DNA from: an uncultured virus (IMG/VR IMGVR_UViG_3300029989_000017) | Lineage: Duplodnaviria; Heunggongvirae; Uroviricota; Caudoviricetes | Virus record (IMG/VR): IMGVR_UViG_3300029989_000017 | Direction: 5' to 3' (one strand) | DNA length: 64,000 nucleotides | In this document: positions 1,498 through 57,615 of the stretch, piece after piece | Layout: each line of letters begins with the position of its first letter | Numbering within the stretch: the first letter of the stretch is position 1 | The notes under the pieces: model-generated | What the model was told of the DNA's origin: nothing | The model's database searches: none | The model's input: only the letters and a program-made list of their open reading frames with translations | Program-made: the position numbers and the translations under genes

Positions 1498-2672
1498 CAG
1501 ATCACCGTCACAGTCACGTTAGCGAGGAGTCCTTGAGACGCCTCGTTGAAGGCTAACACGATGTCGGATGTCGTCAGAGACCCGCCATGGAGCGCCGCCG
1601 TACAGGCGACCACTGAAAACGCAGGGATTGTCAAGCTCGGCTGAGCGCTGAGCGCCGCGCCGTAGATGGATGACACGTATATGTCGTCGCCTATCTGCGG
1701 GCTGTTGAGGTACACTACGATAGCGGCCTTGATCGCGGCCGTCGTGGCCGTCGTATAGCCCGTCAGGGCCTTGACTGTGATCGCCACGTCAATCGGCCGC
1801 AGTGTGGGCCTGAAGAACTTGATCGGTGTCACGAAGCCACTGTCCGCGGTCTCGTTGATGGTCGTCGTGCCGTAGGTGGGGGCCCCCGGTGTCTTCTTGA
1901 GGTAAATCTGATACGCCACGTCGGCGTCGGTGCCGCCCTCGGCGACGATCGCGATGTTGTGTGCGGGCATACCGTCGGCATTCGTTACGTCAGTGGCGTT
2001 GTCGTAGCCTCTGGCGCGCGTCACGTTCGCCACGCTTAGTACTGCGGCCACGATGCCCTCGAGAACTGTACGCGACGGTAGGGCCACAGAGAGGGCCTGT
2101 CGGGCACGAAGGTCGCTGTCCGTTTCCACGGGATTACCGACGACGGCGACTGCGGCGTTCGATACCGAGGTCCACCCGAACGTCGGCGTGACGATCGTCT
2201 GAAGCGCGCCGATGTCCGCGGTGATCGCGCCCGTGTCTTGGGCCGTCGCTGTCACCGTGAGCACGCCGCCGACGGGGATAGTCACGGGGGTCGGTAAGGA
2301 CCACAACAGTCCTGCGGTGTCACTGACGACGCCTGAGGTCACTACCGTGCCCACCGCGCCCACTAACGTGACTAGACACGTAGAGTGTGTCGGCAGGAGC
2401 CGCGCGATGCCGTTGATCTTGACGATAGTATCGAGGCCGACGCCTGCGGCCGACTGCGGCGACTGGCCATTGTAGACGGCCTCAGCGAGCAGGGCCGTGT
2501 CATACGCGATCTTCGACATGGCCGCTATCCACTGCGCGTCTTGCGAGTCATTGTCGAGGTAGATGCCCGAGCCGAAAATCGTCTGCGCCTGCGTCACGTA
2601 ATAGGCCTGTATGTCGGCGAATGTCGGGCGGTGAAATCCAGTTGAGTCAATATACGGTGCAAAATATGCCAT
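1497..2672 (-). CDS. Baseplate J/gp47-like protein
   Basis: SPQSAAGVGLD, GNPVETDSDLRARQ and IKFFRP motifs; 391 aa; baseplate context. Confidence 0.9.
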   Translation of the reverse strand: MAYFAPYIDSTGFHRPTFADIQAYYVTQAQTIFGSGIYLDNDSQDAQWIAAMSKIAYDTALLAEAVYNGQSPQSAAGVGLDTIVKINGIARLLPTHSTCLVTLVGAVGTVVTSGVVSDTAGLLWSLPTPVTIPVGGVLTVTATAQDTGAITADIGALQTIVTPTFGWTSVSNAAVAVVGNPVETDSDLRARQALSVALPSRTVLEGIVAAVLSVANVTRARGYDNATDVTNADGMPAHNIAIVAEGGTDADVAYQIYLKKTPGAPTYGTTTINETADSGFVTPIKFFRPTLRPIDVAITVKALTGYTTATTAAIKAAIVVYLNSPQIGDDIYVSSIYGAALSAQPSLTIPAFSVVACTAALHGGSLTTSDIVLAFNEASQGLLANVTVTVI

Positions 2673-3016
2673 TAGATTGTCACCTCCACGGTCGTCCCAA
2701 AAGACGTTTTGACCGATATTTGCGCGGTATAGACGCGCTTCGCGTCAATGTTACTGCTGAAGGACGCGATGCTCACCACGTTGGGCACCTGAAGGATGCG
2801 CGACTGATAGAGCAGGTCGATCAGGGCCTTGTCGCTACTCCCTGCGATCTCCTGAAAGAAGGGGAGACCATCGTTGAGGTTTTCCCAAAAGTCGCCTGTG
2901 AACAGGGTCAGCTTGGTTTGCACAGCCTGCGCGACTGCGGCGTCATCCGAGATGAAGCACCCGCGGCCGAAGCCGAAGGTATAGTCGCCCGTAGGCGATA
3001 GCGCACGATAGAGCAT
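2672..3016 (-). CDS. Baseplate wedge / sheath initiator (gp25/gp46-like)
   Basis: GDYTFG...AVAQAVQTKLTLFTGDFW; 114 aa between spike and baseplate J. Confidence 0.75.
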   Translation of the reverse strand: MLYRALSPTGDYTFGFGRGCFISDDAAVAQAVQTKLTLFTGDFWENLNDGLPFFQEIAGSSDKALIDLLYQSRILQVPNVVSIASFSSNIDAKRVYTAQISVKTSFGTTVEVTI

Positions 3017-3025
3017 TCAATCACC

Positions 3026-4462
3026 TCACGGAGATAAATATGAGCCATTCTCAAACATGGCCCACTCAGCATCACGCCGATATAGTAGCTTTTGGACGAC
3101 CTGCCCGCCGACTTGGCTGTAGGCGTCGAACTTGGTTTTTAAGGCCTCACCCGTAGTGCCGCTCGCGATAGCGTTTTTCAGCGCGGTCCACTCTAGCCCT
3201 CCCGCGGGGTCATACTTTGGTCTATAGCCGCCGAGGACCTCCGACAGAGAGCGGTCGGTATGCTCTACGACTTGGCCACCGTTGGCGTCTTTGGCCGCCG
3301 AGCTCGTGTTACCGCCGATAGCTGTGATCGTGCCGTCGCCGTTGACCGACTCGACGATCTCCGTGTGTGTCGCGACTGTCGTGCTACCACTCCAAGAGTA
3401 GAACACGACGTCACCCGCCTGAAGACTGTTCTTGTCGACAAACAGGCCGCGGTCTTTGCCCCAATTCATCAGTGTCGTTGAGCTCGCGATCTTAGCGCCT
3501 CCGAACAGGAGAGCCGAAGCGCCGACCATGCGAAAGATGTCCCACACGAAGGTAACGCACCACGGGTATGCGTCCGCGCCTGAGACAGGATGGCCGTAGT
3601 AATCGGTATTGAATATGACATTGTTCGAGTTTCGAGGCGACTCTGTGAGGCCGAGGAAGGACCGCGCCTTCGCGATGATCAGCCCCGGGGTCACACCGAG
3701 GTGCCCACAACTGTACAAGAACGATGTCAGCGCGTCGAGCTGAGTCGTTGAGAGCGTCACACCCGGGAGCGCGGCGATCACTGTGCTCGTGTACCCGGGC
3801 AGGTCCTGAAGCAGTAGGGCCTCGGCCGTCGCCGCTGTCAGAGGGGCTGTGAAGCCGCCGGGAAGAGTTTTTGAATTGTCCCGATGTCCGTAGCCGATGA
3901 GCCAGTTGCCCGCCACGTCCTGCGTCCAGTCAGTTGAGAGACCCTCCCACTGTTCGATGAATTGAACGCCCGCCTTGCTGAGGCCCGTTCCCATGTCCGT
4001 CGTTGAGCCTGTGATGCTATTACCAAAGCCCGCGAAGCCCGTCGGAACTACGCCGTTGATCATGCCGAGGACCGCGATGGCGCTGTTGACATTGTGGCTT
4101 TGTACGACCTGCTGTAACTGCGGCGCAGGCACGCCCGCGAAGCCCTCGCCTGTCGTGGAGAGCCAAGCGGATATGTCGTGATCGCAGAAGATCAAGAGCA
4201 CAGGCTGTCCGACCTTGGGCGCTATACCGAGGGGGCTGATGTAGGGCGTGTCGGCGATTGGCGCGTAGGCCTGCCACACGATCGTACCGTCACTCTGCAC
4301 GCGACGCTCACTTATGACGGGCTGTACTGTCAGGAGGCCCGAGGCCGTGTCGACGTTCAGCACTGTGCCGATTGTCGCGACGTGGAGCTCAGCGAATATG
4401 CTCTCTTTGAACTTTTGAAAGACCTCAGGGAGGTCTCCGCCTATTTCAGGTATTGTAAGCAT
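3026..4462 (-). CDS. Baseplate spike (Gp138-like N-terminus) fused to GH24 lysozyme with nested CHAP domain
   Basis: N-terminal VQP...GQPVLLIFCDHDISAW; lysozyme FIEQWEG..DVAGNWLIGYGH..QLDALTSFLYSCG and LLYRRDAEWAMF; CHAP PWCVTFV, GDVVFY, HTEIV, IGGNT. Confidence 0.8.
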   Translation of the reverse strand: MLTIPEIGGDLPEVFQKFKESIFAELHVATIGTVLNVDTASGLLTVQPVISERRVQSDGTIVWQAYAPIADTPYISPLGIAPKVGQPVLLIFCDHDISAWLSTTGEGFAGVPAPQLQQVVQSHNVNSAIAVLGMINGVVPTGFAGFGNSITGSTTDMGTGLSKAGVQFIEQWEGLSTDWTQDVAGNWLIGYGHRDNSKTLPGGFTAPLTAATAEALLLQDLPGYTSTVIAALPGVTLSTTQLDALTSFLYSCGHLGVTPGLIIAKARSFLGLTESPRNSNNVIFNTDYYGHPVSGADAYPWCVTFVWDIFRMVGASALLFGGAKIASSTTLMNWGKDRGLFVDKNSLQAGDVVFYSWSGSTTVATHTEIVESVNGDGTITAIGGNTSSAAKDANGGQVVEHTDRSLSEVLGGYRPKYDPAGGLEWTALKNAIASGTTGEALKTKFDAYSQVGGQVVQKLLYRRDAEWAMFENGSYLSP

Positions 4463-17597: not shown

Positions 17598-17795
17598 TCA
17601 TTCGTGCTCATACTCCTCGCAGTCGGCACCCTCGAAGAGTACCTCGGAGGGCTTACTCTCGGGATATGGGAACTTTTCGCAGACGCCTTTTGTGTACTGC
17701 GGGCCGCCGAGGCCCCCGCCCTTTTTGAACTTGCAGTCTCGGCATACGATTGTGTCAGCTACTTGTCGGGCCGACAGTTGTTCATTTTTTTCCAC
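17598..17795 (-). CDS. Small Cys-rich protein, candidate immunity/partner of the upstream ART
   Basis: CRDCKF..CEKFP..KPSEVLF..ADCEEY; overlaps the ART gene end. Confidence 0.6.
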   Translation of the reverse strand: MEKNEQLSARQVADTIVCRDCKFKKGGGLGGPQYTKGVCEKFPYPESKPSEVLFEGADCEEYEHE

Positions 17796-20769
17796 TCTTC
17801 GGTCCCTTCTTCTCAGCGGGGCGGTCGAGCACCTCTATGTCGAGATAGGTCGTGCCGCCTGAGCGCTCAATCTTTGTGACGCGGTAGTTGTAGCCGCGGT
17901 TGATGATGACCTCAAACTCGCCGCCGAAGTCACTCTGCTCCTTGTCACCGTCCCACCCGGCGCTCTTTGTACCCTGACCGTACGAGCTGAAGGGCTCTGC
18001 ATAAAGCATCTGTGTGCCTTTAGGCGCATAGATATTGAATATACAGCCGTTGCCCGTGAAGCCGTGGCCCTTTGCCGCGCCTGTAGATAAGAAGCCTGCG
18101 TCTTGCACGGTCTTACCAAGGAGCTTCGTTTTTAGCTCTTCGATGTCGCCGTAGCTGAGGTCGCTGTCGCTGACGCCTAAGAACGGGGCCGCGCCGCTGT
18201 GATCGACTCCGCGCTGTAGCCACATATCGAAGTCATACGTCGACTTGGAGATCGTGTCTGTGAGGTGCTGAATGCCCTCGGCTTGGCCCTCGTTATCAAG
18301 GTCGACGCCGCCGACGCCTTTAAAGTTTTGCTTGCCCCAACTTTGGTTATAGCCCCGTAGCGGCCTGTTGAAGGCCCCTGAGCCTGAGGTGTATGTGTAC
18401 GCGGCCTTTTTGGCCTCGTGTGGTAGCGTTTTCCATAGCGCGCCCAGTGTGGGTCGCAGGGCCTTGTCAGCCGCCTTCGGACCCGTGTAGCCTTGAAACC
18501 ACTTCGCGCCATCTTTGCGTTCCTGTGTGTAGCTCGCGGCCTTTTGCTTGCTCATCTTTTTCTGCGGCTTTGCGGCAGGAGCCGCAGGCTTGGCCGTTGG
18601 GTTGTTTTGTTTCCACTGCTCAAACTCGGTCTGTGCACCATAGATTGACGGCGTATTGCCGCTGAACTTGCCTGTGTTCACGAAGTCCTTGAAGTCATCA
18701 TACTCTGCCTCAGTGAAGCCGAGCTCGTCGGCAGTCCATCCTTGGAACTTATCTATAACGTCGTTGGTGTTATACTGTTGGTCCTGCGTCAGGCCGCTGT
18801 TCTTCGGGTCTTTCGCCTTGTAGAACTGCGCGATCACGCCGCCGATGTTGAACGTATTGCCGTCGAAGTCTTTTTCAATCCAATCAACTAAATCGGATTG
18901 ATCTTTCATATCAAGGCCGTAGCTCTCGAGGTCATCCCAGTTGTTCGCCTTGTACAGGACCGCCTCTACAGCGTCCTGCTGTGCGGCTGTCAGCTTCTTC
19001 TTGGCGGGCTTGCCGTCCTTCTCATACTCTTCGTAGGCGTTCAACGCTGTCCAAAAGCCCGAGTCGGTAGGCTTATACTCGTTATTGACAAAGTCCGTGA
19101 AGGTCTTGGCCGACTCCTCAGGCGTGAGCCCGAACTCTTTGCCCGACAGGGTGATGCTTGAGGGGTAGAACTGCATGGAGTCGAGGACATCACTTTTGAT
19201 GGAGAGCTCACTCTCGGTCCACTTCGATGTCGGCGTTGCGGCCATTTTCTTCTGCTCGAGATACTGTAAGATCGCGCCGTCAGGCGTATCGGCTTTGCCG
19301 TCAAACTTCTCGTCGAGCCAAGTGACAAAGTCGCCCTGAAGCTCGGTCGCGGTAAGCCCCGTGTTCGGATATTGGTCGGCCCACTCTTTGGACTCGCCCC
19401 ACGTTAGCGCCTGAATGCTGTCCTTGATAAACTTTTTGTTCTCTTCGCTCGCAGTGCCTGCCTGCTCTTTTTTCCACTGCCCGTATTCGCCTAGGGCGTT
19501 GTACAGGATGTTCGAGTCGCCGCTGTAGTTGTCGATCATCCATTTTTTAAAGTCTTCTTTGGTCTCCTCGTCGGTCATATGATACTTGTCCGAGAGGTTC
19601 CAGAAGTCGGAGTCACTGTCGCCGCTGTTGACCTCTTTAAGCAGGAGCTCTTTATTCTGCGCCTGCTTCGACGTCCCACCGCCCATGAGAAGCGTGAACG
19701 GGTCCTCGCCGCCCGCGTCGTGGGTCTTTCCCCACTCTTCGTAATCGGCTAAGACTTTGTGAAGATATGTAGAAGAGCCATCCCACTCGTTTGTGACATA
19801 GTCCTTGAACTCCGCGAGCTCTGCCTTGGTGTCTATGCCCTTGTTGTGTAACATATCCGTGTATATCTCGCTGTCGATTTTCCACAGTATCTCGGTCTTA
19901 TTCTCGTCGGCCTCTGACTTCTGCTCAGGCGGGTCCTCGAGCAGGGTGTTGTCTTCCTCGTCCTGCGGCGTGTCAATCAGGCCATCGTCGAGCGGGGGTA
20001 GCTCACCGTCATCAAGCCACTCGTCAGGGTCGCCTAGGTCCTCAAAGCCGTCCTCAGGTATCTCGGCCTTTGGCTCTTCAGCCTTCGGCTCTTCAGCCTT
20101 CGGCAGGTAGCTGTCAACGTCGTCGGAGGGTTTGCCCTTCTCGGCCTCGTCGAGCTTCTCGTATGTCTTCGGGTCATCAATCTTTTTGCCCTGTACTTCT
20201 TTCGGCATATTGCCGCCAATGATTTTCCCGTTTTTATCTATCATAACTTTACGCCCTGCTGAGCCGCCCTCGCCGCGTCCGTCAGCCTTCTTGCCGCCGA
20301 TCGTGACCCAGTGTGCGCCGTCAGGCGTTGTGTCCGTCGCTGTCATGCCAAGAGAGGCCTCGAACGGCGGGAACAGATCAGCGGGCAGGCTCACTCTCGT
20401 GGCCCACCGTGCGTCGGCCATTTCCTTGCCGTCGGCCTTTGGCTTGCCTTTAAAGTCTGTACACAGGAATAGAACGGGTCGCCCGTACTGCGCGGGCAGT
20501 TTCATCTCACCGAGCGGCTGTAGTTCGCCGAGCTCGATGTTAAATTCTTCTTTAGCCTCTCGGCGCGCGGCCTGTTCAGGCGTTTCGCCTGCTTCGATGT
20601 GCCCGCCTGCGCCGCACCATCCTGCGCCGTCAAGACGTCGTCCGATTAGGAGCTCGCCATTCTTCGACACGAGCACAGCGGCCGCCGTGGGCTTCTTCTG
20701 CGCCTGTAGCGCTAAGGCGGCGGTAAGAGCCGCAGTTAGTACGAGCTTGAGTTGTTCTTTTCGTTCCAT
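17782..20769 (-). CDS. NUDIX hydrolase + repeat region + C-terminal ADP-ribosyltransferase (VIP2/Alt-like)
   Basis: NUDIX box GHIEAGETPEQAARREAKEEFNI; ART motifs YT..FNRPLRG, LQRGV, GFLSTG, EFEVIINRG (R-S-ExE). Confidence 0.85.
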   Translation of the reverse strand: MERKEQLKLVLTAALTAALALQAQKKPTAAAVLVSKNGELLIGRRLDGAGWCGAGGHIEAGETPEQAARREAKEEFNIELGELQPLGEMKLPAQYGRPVLFLCTDFKGKPKADGKEMADARWATRVSLPADLFPPFEASLGMTATDTTPDGAHWVTIGGKKADGRGEGGSAGRKVMIDKNGKIIGGNMPKEVQGKKIDDPKTYEKLDEAEKGKPSDDVDSYLPKAEEPKAEEPKAEIPEDGFEDLGDPDEWLDDGELPPLDDGLIDTPQDEEDNTLLEDPPEQKSEADENKTEILWKIDSEIYTDMLHNKGIDTKAELAEFKDYVTNEWDGSSTYLHKVLADYEEWGKTHDAGGEDPFTLLMGGGTSKQAQNKELLLKEVNSGDSDSDFWNLSDKYHMTDEETKEDFKKWMIDNYSGDSNILYNALGEYGQWKKEQAGTASEENKKFIKDSIQALTWGESKEWADQYPNTGLTATELQGDFVTWLDEKFDGKADTPDGAILQYLEQKKMAATPTSKWTESELSIKSDVLDSMQFYPSSITLSGKEFGLTPEESAKTFTDFVNNEYKPTDSGFWTALNAYEEYEKDGKPAKKKLTAAQQDAVEAVLYKANNWDDLESYGLDMKDQSDLVDWIEKDFDGNTFNIGGVIAQFYKAKDPKNSGLTQDQQYNTNDVIDKFQGWTADELGFTEAEYDDFKDFVNTGKFSGNTPSIYGAQTEFEQWKQNNPTAKPAAPAAKPQKKMSKQKAASYTQERKDGAKWFQGYTGPKAADKALRPTLGALWKTLPHEAKKAAYTYTSGSGAFNRPLRGYNQSWGKQNFKGVGGVDLDNEGQAEGIQHLTDTISKSTYDFDMWLQRGVDHSGAAPFLGVSDSDLSYGDIEELKTKLLGKTVQDAGFLSTGAAKGHGFTGNGCIFNIYAPKGTQMLYAEPFSSYGQGTKSAGWDGDKEQSDFGGEFEVIINRGYNYRVTKIERSGGTTYLDIEVLDRPAEKKGPKSGKK

Positions 20770-20785
20770 ACTGCGGCCCCTCGTT

Positions 20786-22600
20786 TCATATTTCTTTGAT
20801 AGTCCTGCCGTACTTCGTCATGAAGTCGCGTTGACCCATCTTTGTGATAACGCCGTGATCGTGTACCTGCATAGGCCACTTGATCGTTCGCCAGAGAATG
20901 ACCTCTGACGCATAACAGCGGCAATTCTTGACAATAACTCCGCGCTGTGTTATGCTGTAGTAGCCATAATCTGATTGGAGGTTGTACACATGCCCCGAAA
21001 AATCCCTAGTGCTCTTATTGACCACGCGCAACAACTTATAACTGACGGCTCCACACTTGAGGCCGCCGCGCAAGCTATCGGGCATCATCGCACAGTAGTC
21101 AGCGATTGCCTCCGCCGTCGCGGGTTTTCCGTTCCTGTCGGTGGGCACCCCGCGGCTAACAGGCTCGTCCTCGACGAGGCTCACGTTCTTGCGGCTTACG
21201 CTGAGGGCCAGAGCGTCCTCTCTTTGTCCAAGGGTCTGAGCTGTAGTCGTCAAGCCATTCGGAACGTTCTCACTCGTAATGGTGTTGCATCGCGAAGCCT
21301 CTCTGAGGCCAACGCTCTCAGAATGTCCACGCTTGACCTCAGCCAACGGAGAGACCTGATTGGCCCCGCCCGAGAACAGCGGTTCGACAACATGGTCGCC
21401 GCGGCCTATGACCGAGAGAGCCGTAACCCTGCTATCGGCGCAGGTGAGCGGGAGCTCGCCGACGCTCTCGAGGCCCAAGGCCTTACCGTCGTCAGACAAA
21501 AACGCGTTGATGACTATTTCGTCGACCTCGCCATCGACTCGCTCGCCGTGGATGTTAAACAGGCCGCCCGAAACAGCTTTACTCCCGTATCGAACTCGCG
21601 CCGTTTCAAACAAATCAGCAAAGCAGGTTACAAGCCCGTCAACTTTGTCTTCACCGATCTCGCTCTCATTGGGCTCTGCATAAACGAGATAGTCGCCACA
21701 CTGAAGGGCGTCGACCGCAGTCCAACCGTTGAGGGTCAATACTGGGTGCTTCGGTGTCGCTTCAAAAGCGGTCCCGTCCGCAAGAACCGTGCGGATGAGT
21801 TTACCGTCGTAGAGTCGACGCCAGATACGATTGTAACCCTTAGACAGGGCCACCTCGGTTGACGCGGGAAAACAGTTATAAATGTTTCCCGCGCTATAAT
21901 TGCCCTCGCTTTTCTTCCCGAGAAGTTTCTCAGGAGCGGGAGGGTCACTGTATCGACACAGCACATTGTCCATGTGCTTATGTGAGTCGCGCGTCCGACC
22001 GTCGCCTTGTGCGCCGCCCGTTGCGTGCCAGATATACCAATCGAGCCCGAGCTCTTCAGCCTGCGCCTGATTGATCGCCGCGTGGGCCTTTGAGGTCTCG
22101 GTCCGCGCGATTAGTTTTGCGTGCTTCTCGGTCATCTCGCCGACCATCTCACGGAACTGCGGGAGCTTGTAGGCTTGCCTGCTGTCCGCGTAGGTCTGCG
22201 ACGCCATGAACTTGGTTAGGTCCTTTGCCACCGCCGACGGCACCGTGTGTATGTACATGGCGTTACGGTCGATGATCTCATCAACACGGGCCCCTAGGTG
22301 GCCCTCTAACATACGTTGTTGCGCGGCGTACATCTGACGCCCGCGGCCTTGTTCTTTTGCGGCCTGCCGCCATGTCTTGGCGGTCTCGCTCAATGTGTTC
22401 GTTACCATGGTGCGCGATGCCATCCTCGCCCAGTCATACAGCGGCTTTGAGGCGCTGAGGGCGTGGAGCTTGTCGGGGAGGTCCTCTATCTTGGTCAGGT
22501 CATCTCCGAAGAGCCTCAGTATAAGGGCCTTCAGCTTTTGCAGGGCCGTGAGATACTGTTGCTCAATGCGGCGTTTAGGGCTCCAAGAACTGAAGAGCAT
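20786..22600 (-). CDS. Head morphogenesis protein (MuF/SPP1 gp7 family), intein-containing
   Basis: AKLIARTETSK, YIWHATG, DGRTRDSH; the conserved G.IYNCRC motif is restored after removing aa 243-559 (287-aa spliced product). Confidence 0.92.
   Translation of the reverse strand: MLFSSWSPKRRIEQQYLTALQKLKALILRLFGDDLTKIEDLPDKLHALSASKPLYDWARMASRTMVTNTLSETAKTWRQAAKEQGRGRQMYAAQQRMLEGHLGARVDEIIDRNAMYIHTVPSAVAKDLTKFMASQTYADSRQAYKLPQFREMVGEMTEKHAKLIARTETSKAHAAINQAQAEELGLDWYIWHATGGAQGDGRTRDSHKHMDNVLCRYSDPPAPEKLLGKKSEGNYSAGNIYNCFPASTEVALSKGYNRIWRRLYDGKLIRTVLADGTAFEATPKHPVLTLNGWTAVDALQCGDYLVYAEPNESEIGEDKVDGLVTCFADLFETARVRYGSKAVSGGLFNIHGERVDGEVDEIVINAFLSDDGKALGLESVGELPLTCADSRVTALSVIGRGDHVVEPLFSGGANQVSPLAEVKRGHSESVGLREASRCNTITSENVPNGLTTTAQTLGQREDALALSVSRKNVSLVEDEPVSRGVPTDRNGKPATAEAIADYCAMMPDSLRGGLKCGAVSYKLLRVVNKSTRDFSGHVYNLQSDYGYYSITQRGVIVKNCRCYASEVILWRTIKWPMQVHDHGVITKMGQRDFMTKYGRTIKEI
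20928..20956 (+). promoter_or_regulatory. Sigma-A/70 promoter for the antisense gene inside the intein
   Basis: TTGACA (20928-33), 17-bp spacer, TGt extended -10, TATGCT (20951-56). GGAGGT at 20977-82 lies 7 nt before ATG 20990. Confidence 0.8.
20990..21862 (+). CDS. Putative homing endonuclease (2x HTH + Vsr/DUF559-like PD-(D/E)xK domain), antisense within the intein
   Basis: 290 aa; HTH-like TLEAAAQAIGHHRTVVSDCLRRRG and SVLSLSKGLSCSRQAIRNVLTRNG; nuclease-like GERELADALEAQGLTVVRQKRVDDYFVDLAIDSLAVDVK; own promoter and RBS; fully confined to the intein. Confidence 0.8.
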   Translation: MPRKIPSALIDHAQQLITDGSTLEAAAQAIGHHRTVVSDCLRRRGFSVPVGGHPAANRLVLDEAHVLAAYAEGQSVLSLSKGLSCSRQAIRNVLTRNGVASRSLSEANALRMSTLDLSQRRDLIGPAREQRFDNMVAAAYDRESRNPAIGAGERELADALEAQGLTVVRQKRVDDYFVDLAIDSLAVDVKQAARNSFTPVSNSRRFKQISKAGYKPVNFVFTDLALIGLCINEIVATLKGVDRSPTVEGQYWVLRCRFKSGPVRKNRADEFTVVESTPDTIVTLRQGHLG

Positions 22601-22606
22601 TGCTCA

Positions 22607-24154
22607 TCACCCCCACAGTTTCTCTCGGAGAGCCGCGAAGCGTGCTTTTATGCCAGTGGGAGCCGCCGTTTCGGGCGGCTCTGCCTGAGCATCAGGTAGG
22701 CCCGTAGGAGGAACAGGCCCGCCCTCGGGGGTCATATTCGGGTCGCCGCCCATCAGCGCGGCCATTGGGTCCTCACCGCCTTCGCCCATCTGTTGGGGCT
22801 CATCGTCGGCGGCTTCGATCTCTTCGTCGGTTATGTTGGTAAACAGGCCAGTCTCTTCGCTCATCTGCCGAAGCTCTTTGAGCGCCGTCTTGCGGCTGAG
22901 GAGCCCGTTGTCGTAGGTGGAGGTGACCGCGGTCGTCTTCGCTGTCGCGATGTCGGCCTTCTCTTTGCCATCAGGAATACGAACAGGGTTAAACGACACG
23001 CCAAGGTCATCAGGCACCGCGCCGAACTCGCTCATGCACATGATTGGCAGGAGGCGGTCAAGGTGCGGCTCGATCTTGTTCTCTTGCATATTCTCGAGAA
23101 GCGTGTAGTAGTTGTCCGTGTCTGATTCGCCTGTGGCATTCATGCCCCCGGGGCTGATGCCGAAGAGCTTCGTCATGGGAAATCCCGTGACGGAACAGAG
23201 CGCCTGTTGGAACTGCGTGAGGACCTGATCAAGGCCCGTGAATGCGTAGGGCTTGTTCTCAAGGCTGTCGTCCGCGTCTATGACCCGGGTTGAGAATGAG
23301 CTCATGAGAATGTTCTGCGCCTTCAGGGTCTCGTACAGGCGGCCCGATTGATATTGATTCGTGCCTAGCATCTGTGCGAGGTCGGGCGACTTCTGTATCC
23401 ACACGTTCGCCTGATAGAGCAGGCGGCCGATGTTGTGCTTAGCGTCGTCGTATTGACGGAGCTCGTCGAAGATTGTCTCAATGACCGAAGCGCCCCACGC
23501 TTGCTCGACTAGGCTCTCCCAGTAGGGTAATTCGTCCCCGACGAAGCGCAGTATGCGGCTATGATGCACACGCACGTTATCAGTAGCAGTCTCACTCGCT
23601 CTCACCTCGTAATACTCAGGTAGACCGAAGTCGGGGTCGTTAATGTCGTCGACATTCGTCATGGACGGGTAGAGGCCTGACCAACGGTCGACGACGTATA
23701 GGCCCTTGAAGCTGTCGACCTCAATAGTCTTCAGGTCCAAAGGTTGGTCGAGGATGTCGCCGTGGCCGTCGATCATGATGAGCGCGCCTGCGCCGCCGAA
23801 TAGCCGTGCCCACTTGAGGCCGAACTCGATGCCGCGCTTGATCTTGGTCTTCTTCTCGAGCTTCTTTAGGGCGTCAAGCTGTTCAGGCGCGAGCTGTGAG
23901 TCGATCTTGTACCAATGCGCGATCGCGTCCTCGACAGGCAGGTTGATAATGCGCTTCAGGATGCCCGAGCCGCGGTAGAGCGACAGGAGCATCATGTATT
24001 GCATCGTTAATCGGGTCATCGGGTACTCAGCGCCCTCGGATAAGCTCGTCGCGCCGAAGCCTAGGCCCGCGGCGGGGTTAGCGTATGAGTCCGCGGCGTA
24101 GAGCACAACGGGCCTGTTCGGGTCCGCCACCCGATGCGCTTTTAATTTTGCCAT
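22607..24154 (-). CDS. Portal protein (DUF1073-like)
   Basis: LKWARLFGGAG, VHHSRILRF, WGASV, PMTKLFGISPGGMNATGESD..NYY. Confidence 0.92.
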   Translation of the reverse strand: MAKLKAHRVADPNRPVVLYAADSYANPAAGLGFGATSLSEGAEYPMTRLTMQYMMLLSLYRGSGILKRIINLPVEDAIAHWYKIDSQLAPEQLDALKKLEKKTKIKRGIEFGLKWARLFGGAGALIMIDGHGDILDQPLDLKTIEVDSFKGLYVVDRWSGLYPSMTNVDDINDPDFGLPEYYEVRASETATDNVRVHHSRILRFVGDELPYWESLVEQAWGASVIETIFDELRQYDDAKHNIGRLLYQANVWIQKSPDLAQMLGTNQYQSGRLYETLKAQNILMSSFSTRVIDADDSLENKPYAFTGLDQVLTQFQQALCSVTGFPMTKLFGISPGGMNATGESDTDNYYTLLENMQENKIEPHLDRLLPIMCMSEFGAVPDDLGVSFNPVRIPDGKEKADIATAKTTAVTSTYDNGLLSRKTALKELRQMSEETGLFTNITDEEIEAADDEPQQMGEGGEDPMAALMGGDPNMTPEGGPVPPTGLPDAQAEPPETAAPTGIKARFAALREKLWG

Positions 24155-56663: not shown

Positions 56664-56740
56664 TTTTGTGCATTTTGCCTATTGACTTCTTTACTCAATG
56701 TAGTAAAATAGGTACTATGAGAGACCCACTACGAGAGGAG
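56649..56740 (+). promoter_or_regulatory. Repeated early promoter cassette
   Basis: Inverted repeat AAAATGCACAA/TTGTGCATTTT; TTGACT-16-TAAAAT; RBS GAGAGGAG. Confidence 0.85.
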
Positions 56741-56748
56741 CAAACGCC

Positions 56749-57576
56749 ATGAAGAAAAAAGAGTACGCGCCCTATAAAGAATACATCCGCACAGACAGGA
56801 ATGGGACAAAGTATTACAACGAGCGCGTTGACTGCGGACGTTGCGGCGGAACAGGCTTTTACGGACCGATTCAGGTTTTCAATGGTGAGTGCTTCGACTG
56901 TAATAAACGCGGATGGGTCATCGCCGAGACCAAAGAGTACACGCCTGAGCACCGCGCCAAACTCGACGCCAAAGCCGAGGCCGCGAGAGCCAAGAAGACC
57001 GCCGAGCACCTCGCCCACATTCCCGCCGAGAACGCCGCTTTTATGTGGCGGAAGTTTGAAGGTCACGACCACATCTGCGCGATACTCGGCAAGACCTACG
57101 AGCTCAAGGACGAGCTCAAGGCCGAAGGGTGCTTTTACAGGGGTGAGTTTGACGGTTGGTGCGCCTACGAGACAAAGCGCCCCTGCGTCAAGGTCCCGGT
57201 CGACGATCTCATCGAGACGACCGACAGCGGGTGGGTCCGTCTGAGAGACGACGGCGCGGTGATCGTTCGGGCGCTCAAAGAGATCGCCGAGAAGGCACTC
57301 CGCCCCGTCAGCGAGCACGTCGGCAAGGTCGGCGAGAGAATCACCTGCGACATCGTGGTTGAGGACGTGTTCAGCTACAAGTGCAAGAGCTTCGCAGGTT
57401 ACGGCATGGAGACCCGATACATCAACAAGTTTCGGACGGCCGACGGTAATATTCTCGTGTGGCAGACAAGCGCTCCCGCCGACGAGAAGGCCACAAAGAT
57501 CACGGGCACGGTCAAGGCCCACGACGACTACAAAGGCGAAAAACAGACAACACTTCAGCGTTGCAAACTTGGATAA
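56749..57576 (+). CDS. Zn-finger + OB-fold nucleic-acid-binding protein
   Basis: CGRCGGTG..CFDC; GKTYELKDELKAEG; C-terminal HVGKVGER...GTVKAHDDYKGEKQT. Confidence 0.65.
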   Translation: MKKKEYAPYKEYIRTDRNGTKYYNERVDCGRCGGTGFYGPIQVFNGECFDCNKRGWVIAETKEYTPEHRAKLDAKAEAARAKKTAEHLAHIPAENAAFMWRKFEGHDHICAILGKTYELKDELKAEGCFYRGEFDGWCAYETKRPCVKVPVDDLIETTDSGWVRLRDDGAVIVRALKEIAEKALRPVSEHVGKVGERITCDIVVEDVFSYKCKSFAGYGMETRYINKFRTADGNILVWQTSAPADEKATKITGTVKAHDDYKGEKQTTLQRCKLG

Positions 57577-57614
57577 TAAAAAGCCCCTCAACCAAACGGC
57601 TGAGGGGCTTTTCT
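57577..57614. terminator. Bidirectional intrinsic terminator between converging early and late units
   Basis: AAAAAAGCCCCTCA...TGAGGGGCTTTT. Confidence 0.85.
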
Positions 57615-57615
57615 T

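Follow-up and report, generated by a model that had tools for sequence, protein, structure and literature searches.

A MuF-gene intein with a predicted Vsr-like homing endonuclease on its opposite strand in an uncultured peat-metagenome phage

Gosselin, Arsenault and Gogarten recently described minor capsid proteins of actinobacteriophages whose full inteins hold anti-sense VSR-like endonucleases (bioRxiv 10.1101/2025.01.02.630785). In that preprint, 63 of 784 actinobacteriophage inteins carried non-canonical endonucleases, and HHpred matched the VSR-like endonuclease to 3R3P. As its origin, the authors propose that a free-standing endonuclease gene invaded an intein, which agrees with Dassa et al. 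2009 (PMC2677866). The preprint also cites Gorbalenya 1998 and Gogarten et al. 2002 for LAGLIDADG endonucleases encoded anti-sense within inteins, as in Synechocystis DnaX and others. Here, an element of this kind was analysed in IMGVR_UViG_3300029989_000017, a stretch of 64,000 nucleotides (nt) from an uncultured virus of the Caudoviricetes, which is referred to below at its full length as the window. The element is an intein in a MuF-like minor capsid gene, and the opposite strand of the intein holds an open reading frame (ORF) for a putative homing endonuclease. The window element belongs to the recently described anti-sense VSR-like intein type, and the suggestion of a preliminary description, made from the letters of the window alone, that the architecture might be undescribed did not hold, as it is already in print in the preprint named above. 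The present case adds evidence on the selection acting on each frame and on the extent of the frame overlap, not a new kind of element.

The window element was compared with the described systems. With the actinobacteriophage anti-sense VSR-like inteins it shares the contiguous intein, the antisense endonuclease ORF, the VSR-like fold (3R3P match), the minor capsid (MuF-like) host gene and a structureless sense middle. The window copy, however, comes from a peat-metagenome phage and not from an actinobacteriophage isolate, and its closest named relatives infect Gram-negatives, namely Vibrio, Aggregatibacter, Klebsiella, Salmonella and Edwardsiella. It differs further in that its ORF starts at the His codon of splicing block F and has ~45 C-terminal residues mirrored on block A/B. 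The fractured genes (Dassa et al. 2009, PMC2677866) and I-Bth0305I (Taylor et al. 2011, PMC3239194) have in common with it a Vsr-like nuclease with an N-terminal DNA-binding region; they too are associated with inteins and phages and have free-standing relatives. In fractured genes, two separately translated gene halves flank the endonuclease gene and the intein is split, whereas in the window the host frame reads through and the intein is contiguous; the N-terminal domains are of the HTH_23/HTH_7 type in the window protein and NUMODs in the systems of those two papers. The anti-sense LAGLIDADG inteins share the opposite-strand endonuclease but differ in nuclease family and host genes. A homing endonuclease ORF overlapping a host frame that stays open is also shared with the case of Arsenault et al. 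2025 (PMC11855218), which in contrast lies in the +3 frame of the same strand, encodes an HNH nuclease and sits in an insertion without a detectable splicing domain.

We found that the MuF gene is very probably interrupted by a class-1-type intein, the opposite strand of which codes for a complete site-specific endonuclease that would drive its homing. The host gene and the parts of the intein read from the minus strand are located in the window as follows:
20786..22600, minus strand: MuF-like head morphogenesis (minor capsid) gene, with a precursor ORF of 604 amino acids (aa) and a predicted spliced product of 287 aa
20924..21874, minus strand: intein of 317 aa, C243–N559, with Cys at +1 (C560), inserted at the conserved N/CRC site of MuF (the slash marks the insertion point)
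21506..21874, minus strand: N-terminal splicing (HINT) part, intein residues 1–123, with block A (Cys1) and block B (TPKH); confident beta strands in the AlphaFold2 model and Foldseek match 2imz_A (probability 1.00, E 5.2e-3)
21044..21505, minus strand: sense-frame linker, intein residues 124–277, an open frame without predicted fold and with little conservation
20924..21043, minus strand: C-terminal splicing part, intein residues 278–317, with block F (GHVYNL) and block G (VIVKN); confident strands in the AlphaFold2 model

The MuF translation reads ...GNIYN / CFPASTEV...GVIVKN / CRCYA..., where the slashes are the intein limits, and the hallmarks of a class-1 intein (C243, the T-P-K-H of block B, N559 and C560 at +1) are all there. 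When the intein was aligned with 11 homologues (alignment A4), the residues C1, T40, P41, H43, P44, G294, H295, V296 and N317 were invariant. The AlphaFold2 model of the sense intein, for which this alignment was used, was confident at residues 1–68, 81–123 and 278–317 only, and the folded parts matched the Mtu RecA, RadA, DnaB and gp41-1 mini-inteins (Foldseek probability 0.95–1.00, E from 5e-3). Residues 124–252 and 263–277 showed almost no secondary structure, with a pLDDT score (local distance difference test, as predicted) of <50 and ~25 on average. An endonuclease-domain match to this model was not obtained with Foldseek, and no LAGLIDADG or HNH family was reported in the sense protein by Pfam or PHROGs; the Pfam Intein_splicing profile scored 22.4 bits on it, below the cut-off of 35.8. 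Going by the model, the splicing blocks are joined in the sense frame by an unconserved and probably unstructured linker of about 150 residues.

The insertion point was N/CRC in 10 of the 11 aligned homologues and NCR/C in the locus L024, and the insertion context recurred in 10 relatives from viral contigs and in phage Snoke, the intein of which had been annotated by its depositors. The translation at L024 / L025 (2423–3376, minus strand) reads ...IWNCR / CFSSDT...IIAQN / CWAEP..., and the intein seemingly lies two codons downstream of the usual N/CRC; this placement may be a shifted insertion point or an ambiguity of the boundary. A MuF allele without intein exists in Acinetobacter phage IME285, where the uninterrupted gene reads ...MCKCRAKL....

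The opposite strand of the intein holds the following features:
20990..21862, plus strand: putative antisense homing-endonuclease gene of 290 aa, with two helix-turn-helix (HTH) domains, a helical linker and a Vsr-like PD-(D/E)xK nuclease
21008..21277, plus strand: two predicted HTH DNA-binding domains, about aa 7–43 and 63–96, from the helices of the model and a profile match to 2lvs_A (3.3e-7) and a resolvase HTH
21413..21853, plus strand: predicted Vsr-like nuclease domain, aa 142–288, from conserved columns and structural matches
20928..20956, plus strand: candidate sigma-70-like promoter, TTGACA (20928–20933), 17 nt and TG-n-TATGCT, inside the codons of block G
20977..20992, plus strand: Shine-Dalgarno sequence GGAGG (20977–20981), an 8-nt spacer and ATG, the mirror of the block F codons H-V-Y-N-L

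The antisense ORF starts at TTG 20975 (295 aa) or ATG 20990 (290 aa) and ends at 21862. By arithmetic on the coordinates, it is in exact codon register with MuF, with sense position 3 opposite antisense position 1, and it spans the sense codons 248–537, i.e. 290 of the 317 intein codons, beginning within block F and ending within block A/B. The codons TTA, CTA and TCA of the sense frame, which are stops when read on the mirror strand, numbered 8 in the 287 codons of the exteins vs 2 in the 317 codons of the intein. The two of the intein sit at its edges (codons 247 and 543), leaving 295 codons free of them, a gap that would arise at the extein rate with a chance of about 2e-4. Another long antisense ORF of the window is found at 20111–20908 (265 codons) opposite a gene of 995 aa, and a second, nearly coextensive pair of ORFs on opposite strands lies at 56695–57615 (minus strand, 306 codons) and 56707–57576 (plus strand, 289 codons). 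Since such ORFs reach 265–289 codons elsewhere in the window, the length of the ORF alone is weak evidence. The candidate promoter is the only sigma-70-like site in 20600–22300. A clear GGAGG or GAGG was found in the window, in the loci L007 and L010 and in the Jersey-like phages.

To examine the family of the antisense protein, 1.84 billion representative proteins (50% clustering) were searched exhaustively with HMMER. At E≤1e-3 there were 975 relatives, of which 261 reached ≤1e-10 and 25 reached ≤1e-30. The top relative showed 37% identity over residues 1–289 (E 2e-52), and most of the relatives were proteins of 280–300 aa matched over their full length. The anti-sense Vsr-like intein family is thus large by the count of its representatives and extends beyond the actinobacteriophages. 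A word-indexed protein search with the antisense ORF had returned no relatives; as HMMER later gave 975, the blank result reflects the limited sensitivity of the word-based search. The window protein alone reached Pfam E-values of only 0.02–0.05 and scored 15.4 bits with MTES_1575 (PF18741), under the gathering cut-off of 38.2. From its sequence, it would be placed in a superfamily related to MTES_1575 and DUF559 (PF04480), not as a member by Pfam's rule. Among 103 family members (alignment A2), HTH_23 was found in 47, HTH_7 in 39, MTES_1575 in 23 and DUF559 in 10, the matches to the last two being taken at E≤0.01 with a best value of 2.4e-5.

With the alignment A2 as input, AlphaFold2 gave a model of the antisense protein with a mean pLDDT of 93.6 and a predicted template modelling score of 0.79, in which two three-helix HTH units lead through a long helical linker to an alpha/beta domain. 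The top Protein Data Bank (PDB) match in Foldseek was the catalytic domain of I-Bth0305I (3r3p_B, probability 1.00, E 1.2e-3). The structure search by VIA-align, which is independent of Foldseek, ranked E. coli Vsr first (1cw0_A, Z 10.0, root-mean-square deviation 3.8, 117 residues, model residues 142–288), followed by 3r3p_B of I-Bth0305I (Z 8.2) and the DUF559-like 3hrl_A (Z 8.0), and it matched the N-terminal HTH units to the DNA-binding domain of GcrA, Tc3 and Tn3 resolvase (Z 5.8–6.6). When compared with PDB sequences, the family profile hit 3hrl (E 1.3e-4) and 3r3p (E 0.016), and the nuclease domain alone hit only 3hrl (E 0.0077), plus spurious ankyrin-repeat rows. The residues conserved in the nuclease family were E153, Q170, Y176, D179 (invariant) and E188, and the alignment to 3hrl puts D179 and E188 on the DUF559 core. 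The window copy has D188, V and K190, i.e. a D...(D/E)xK arrangement. In a motif-level comparison with EDxHD, behind which stands no residue-level alignment to 3r3p or Vsr, E153, D179 and E188 were kept and there was no conserved His among the invariant and near-invariant columns. Judged from the model and the family, the antisense frame encodes a conserved product that is predicted to combine a Vsr-like nuclease with two HTH domains. These findings bear out the preliminary description on several counts: its intein of 317 aa (C243–N559, Cys+1, at IYN/CRC) was correct in coordinates and features on translation, the coordinates of the ORFs confirmed its 290-aa frame (20990–21862) in codon register within the intein, the sense middle is foldless in the model and gave no LAGLIDADG or HNH match, as it had noted, and the two HTH segments and Vsr/DUF559-like core that it had proposed recur in the modelled fold.

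The relatives surveyed were phage records and viral contigs, with MuF-like host genes. A tblastn search with the sense intein gave hits in 99 phage records (best E 2e-12), with a query coverage of at least 80% in 73, and the antisense protein matched 56 records, 19 with at least 80% coverage. The best E-values of the antisense protein (a Vibrio phage at 2e-27, Aaphi23 at 5e-24 and Klebsiella phages at 7e-23) were better than those of the sense frame, and it also matched the MuF genes of Gordonia and Mycobacterium phages (E 3e-13 to 3e-8). Besides the actinobacteriophages, carriers of the family include phages of Salmonella, Escherichia, Shigella, Klebsiella, Vibrio, Aggregatibacter and Edwardsiella; further copies came from peat metagenomes. 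Both frames were open across the intein and in register in all of the 22 non-identical embedded relatives inspected. These comprise Salmonella phage vB_StyS-sam, E. coli phage Snoke and Gordonia phage Angelicage (3/3); the Vibrio, Aaphi23, Klebsiella, Gordonia Malisha and Mycobacterium Sejanus loci (5/6, the sixth locus being Acinetobacter phage IME285); and non-identical viral contigs (14/14). The lineage of the window itself was represented by identical or 99%-identical copies only; a metagenome scan gave one 99%-identical copy with two differences, both at sense position 3.

In Acinetobacter phage vB_AbaM_IME285 (L011, 413–2127), a free-standing homologue of the endonuclease was found (297 aa, E 2e-15). 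Its gene is convergent with the intein-less MuF, overlaps the 3' end of the latter by a few bases and lies within about 60 nt of the intein site of the relatives. There were 12 mirror-stop codons in the 297 codons of this free-standing homologue vs none in the embedded genes of phages with 43–48% guanine-cytosine (GC) content. The IME285 gene has the appearance of the element in a free-standing stage, and the case supports the view that inteins gain mobility by capturing free-standing endonuclease genes.

The selection on each frame was measured in the genes of ten Jersey-like Salmonella, E. coli and Shigella phages, which are of equal length (1860 nt) and were compared column by column. The substitutions at sense positions 1/2/3 were 120/73/355 in the N-extein and 27/14/115 in the C-extein (147/87/470 in the exteins together) vs 67/11/25 in the intein codons 331–480 (chi-square p 7e-21 for the difference in pattern). 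The wobble in the intein middle therefore falls on sense position 1, the third position of the antisense codons. The ratio of nonsynonymous to synonymous substitution rates (dN/dS) by the method of Nei and Gojobori was 0.11 for the sense and 1.23 for the antisense frame in the N-extein, and 0.06 and 1.72, respectively, in the C-extein. The order was reversed in the intein middle, with 1.21 for the sense and 0.12 for the antisense frame. Where the endonuclease frame overlaps blocks A/B, the values were 0.42 (sense) and 0.50 (antisense), and in the block F/G tail beyond the endonuclease start they were 0.11 and 1.12. Thus, purifying selection on the antisense frame in the intein middle was shown directly in the relatives, and blocks A/B are constrained in both frames. 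Across the 11 distant homologues, scored on the same codon columns, the BLOSUM62 column mean in the intein middle was 0.89–1.98 for the antisense vs −0.18 to 0.76 for the sense frame; at both intein ends the sense frame was better conserved (2.4–3.2). About 870 bases of the window would make a clean natural case of two functional proteins coded on opposite strands.

The preliminary description had read the locus as dual-coding, with a linker in the sense frame and a nuclease in antisense, and had anticipated selection on the plus-strand frame in the middle of the intein and on both frames over blocks A/B. The homology, the fold and the per-frame selection support this reading, and the expected pattern was found in the relatives, one of the 22 embedded loci (L019) having a decayed endonuclease. 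The contrary outcomes that it had listed for computation, namely stops in the antisense frame of homologous inteins, a plus-strand ORF without HTH or nuclease fold and an endonuclease fold in the sense middle, were not what the analysis returned.

The overlap between the two genes was found to involve the splicing blocks themselves, as the endonuclease gene extends beyond the space between them. In 21 of 22 loci, the start codon of the endonuclease is the reverse complement of the invariant His codon of block F (19 CAT/ATG and 2 CAC/GTG); the 22nd, Aaphi23, was missed by the regular expression and has the same start/His layout by eye. In the window lineage, the Shine-Dalgarno sequence mirrors the Y-N-L codons of block F. 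At the other end, the last ~45 endonuclease residues are mirrored on block A/B, and the conserved C-terminal strand (E/Q)YWV(I/L)RC of the endonuclease (QYWVLRC here) mirrors the block B sequence TPNHPILT (TPKHPVLT here). It is possible, though we would put it on the doubtful side, that the entanglement of the two selfish modules reaches into their functional cores and is more than a stacking of one on the other. If such a coupling were selected, deletion of the endonuclease by the intein, or drift of the endonuclease, would damage splicing; it could then slow the cycle of invasion, decay and loss and explain the spread of the element in MuF genes.

We infer that the element would be transcribed, translated, spliced and mobilized in the following manner. 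An antisense transcript of its own, served by the promoter-like site and the GGAGG–ATG within the codons of blocks G and F, would yield the endonuclease, which would cut intein-less MuF alleles near N/CRC in a co-infecting phage. Repair would then copy the whole element into the cut allele, and protein splicing would excise the insert from MuF, so that the host gene keeps working.

Mobility of this kind was examined by comparing inteins with their exteins. L026 and L027 differ at 16 sites over 43 codons of the N-extein and at 9 over 40 codons of the C-extein, but at none over 312 codons of the intein; for L018 and L019 the numbers of differences are 17 (N-extein), 1 (intein) and 1 (C-extein). 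In the Jersey-like phages, the synonymous rate (dS) was 0.23 for the antisense frame in the intein middle vs 1.42 and 0.72 for the sense frame in the exteins. Near-identical inteins in diverged exteins and the low dS of the intein fit recent horizontal spread. In addition, the endonuclease frame of L019 (about 2333–3196, compared with L018) has a premature stop 112 aa from its start. It arose by one change that leaves the Leu of the host frame as it was, and the intein and the MuF frame are intact; going by this sequence, L019 is an apparent example of endonuclease decay.

Several observations weigh against a functional intein with a homing endonuclease on its opposite strand. The penultimate residue of the intein is Lys and not the usual His (K, Q, R or H among relatives), and the window copy has Asp at position 188, where the family Glu is near-invariant. 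The promoter candidate is a single consensus match that is not significant alone, as shuffled sequence yields 0.6 ± 0.9 such sites, and many relatives, including most of the metagenomic ones, have no clear Shine-Dalgarno sequence. The selection was measured in distant relatives with an endonuclease of about 27% (23–40%) identity to that of the window and not in the window's own lineage, and the double coding constraint could partly account for the low divergence of inteins. Furthermore, no intein-less allele was seen at region 20300–23000 in four peat metagenome runs, the contigs of which were short and fragmentary and hence uninformative on its existence; sequence variants were likewise absent from these fragmentary contigs.

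Some of these points are shared by the strongest rival explanation, in which the element is real but the window copy is a fixed, vertically inherited relic, its endonuclease inactive or no longer homing and its frame still open pending decay. The lack of copies other than identical or 99%-identical ones, of intein-less alleles in the fragmentary peat contigs and of the family Glu at position 188 would all suit a relic, as would the premature stop of L019, by which decay does happen. The ORF of the window, however, is complete in length, its start, Shine-Dalgarno sequence and all other near-invariant residues being intact, and sister lineages carry identical inteins in diverged exteins. The D-x-K arrangement is an accepted variant of the PD-(D/E)xK motif. 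We therefore consider a relic improbable, though it deserves more weight than the other alternatives.

A different role of the antisense protein, co-opted as an HTH regulator, for the tuning of MuF by convergent transcription or as a nuclease against competitors instead of homing, appears very improbable. Its two HTH domains and a gene that faces the late-gene transcript head-on are in its favour, and free-standing homing endonucleases of T-even phages are a precedent for the exclusion of competitors. The family is nevertheless tied tightly to one MuF insertion site across distant phages, its free-standing homologue lies next to the corresponding site of a MuF without intein, and identical inteins in diverged exteins fit homing. 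That the antisense ORF is a non-coding chance shadow of a GC-rich gene, for which the 55–60% GC of the window, its other antisense ORFs of 265–289 codons, the poor Pfam E-values and the blank word-based search could be cited, is refuted practically beyond doubt by the 975 relatives with a full-length match at E 2e-52, the Vsr-like fold with its pLDDT, the antisense dN/dS of 0.12 in relatives, the free-standing homologue and the upkeep of the frame in phages of 43–48% GC, where a shadow ORF of 300 codons is unexpected. Homology, fold and selection together thus make the antisense ORF more than a chance frame.

The antisense gene was found to be overlooked by automatic annotation. In 5 of 6 phage records inspected, the host gene alone is annotated. 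Some deposited genomes of Jersey-like phages record short 'hypothetical proteins' within the MuF intein, at L001 1626–2027 (minus strand) and 1955–2203 (plus strand) and in the PK1/PK2 records, in other frames than that of the 250-aa endonuclease, and the real antisense gene is missed or mis-framed in public annotation.

The host gene belongs to a block of head genes on the minus strand, made up of the portal, MuF and 995-aa genes. The 604-aa MuF protein matched Pfam Phage_Mu_F (E 1.4e-8, aa 150–243) as well as the PHROGs families phrog_324, head morphogenesis (5.1e-39), and phrog_15127 (2e-61). The portal gene (22607–24154, minus strand; Pfam Phage_portal_3, E 2.6e-104) lies directly upstream. 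Directly downstream, the 995-aa gene (17782–20769, minus strand) has an N-terminal NUDIX domain (E 1.4e-16) and a C-terminal ADPrib_exo_Tox domain (E 6.7e-16), and the NUDIX and ADP-ribosyltransferase exoenzyme domains are separated by a long acidic, repeat-like stretch. Several records of Jersey-like phages name their own MuF gene 'NAD+--asparagine ADP-ribosyltransferase'.

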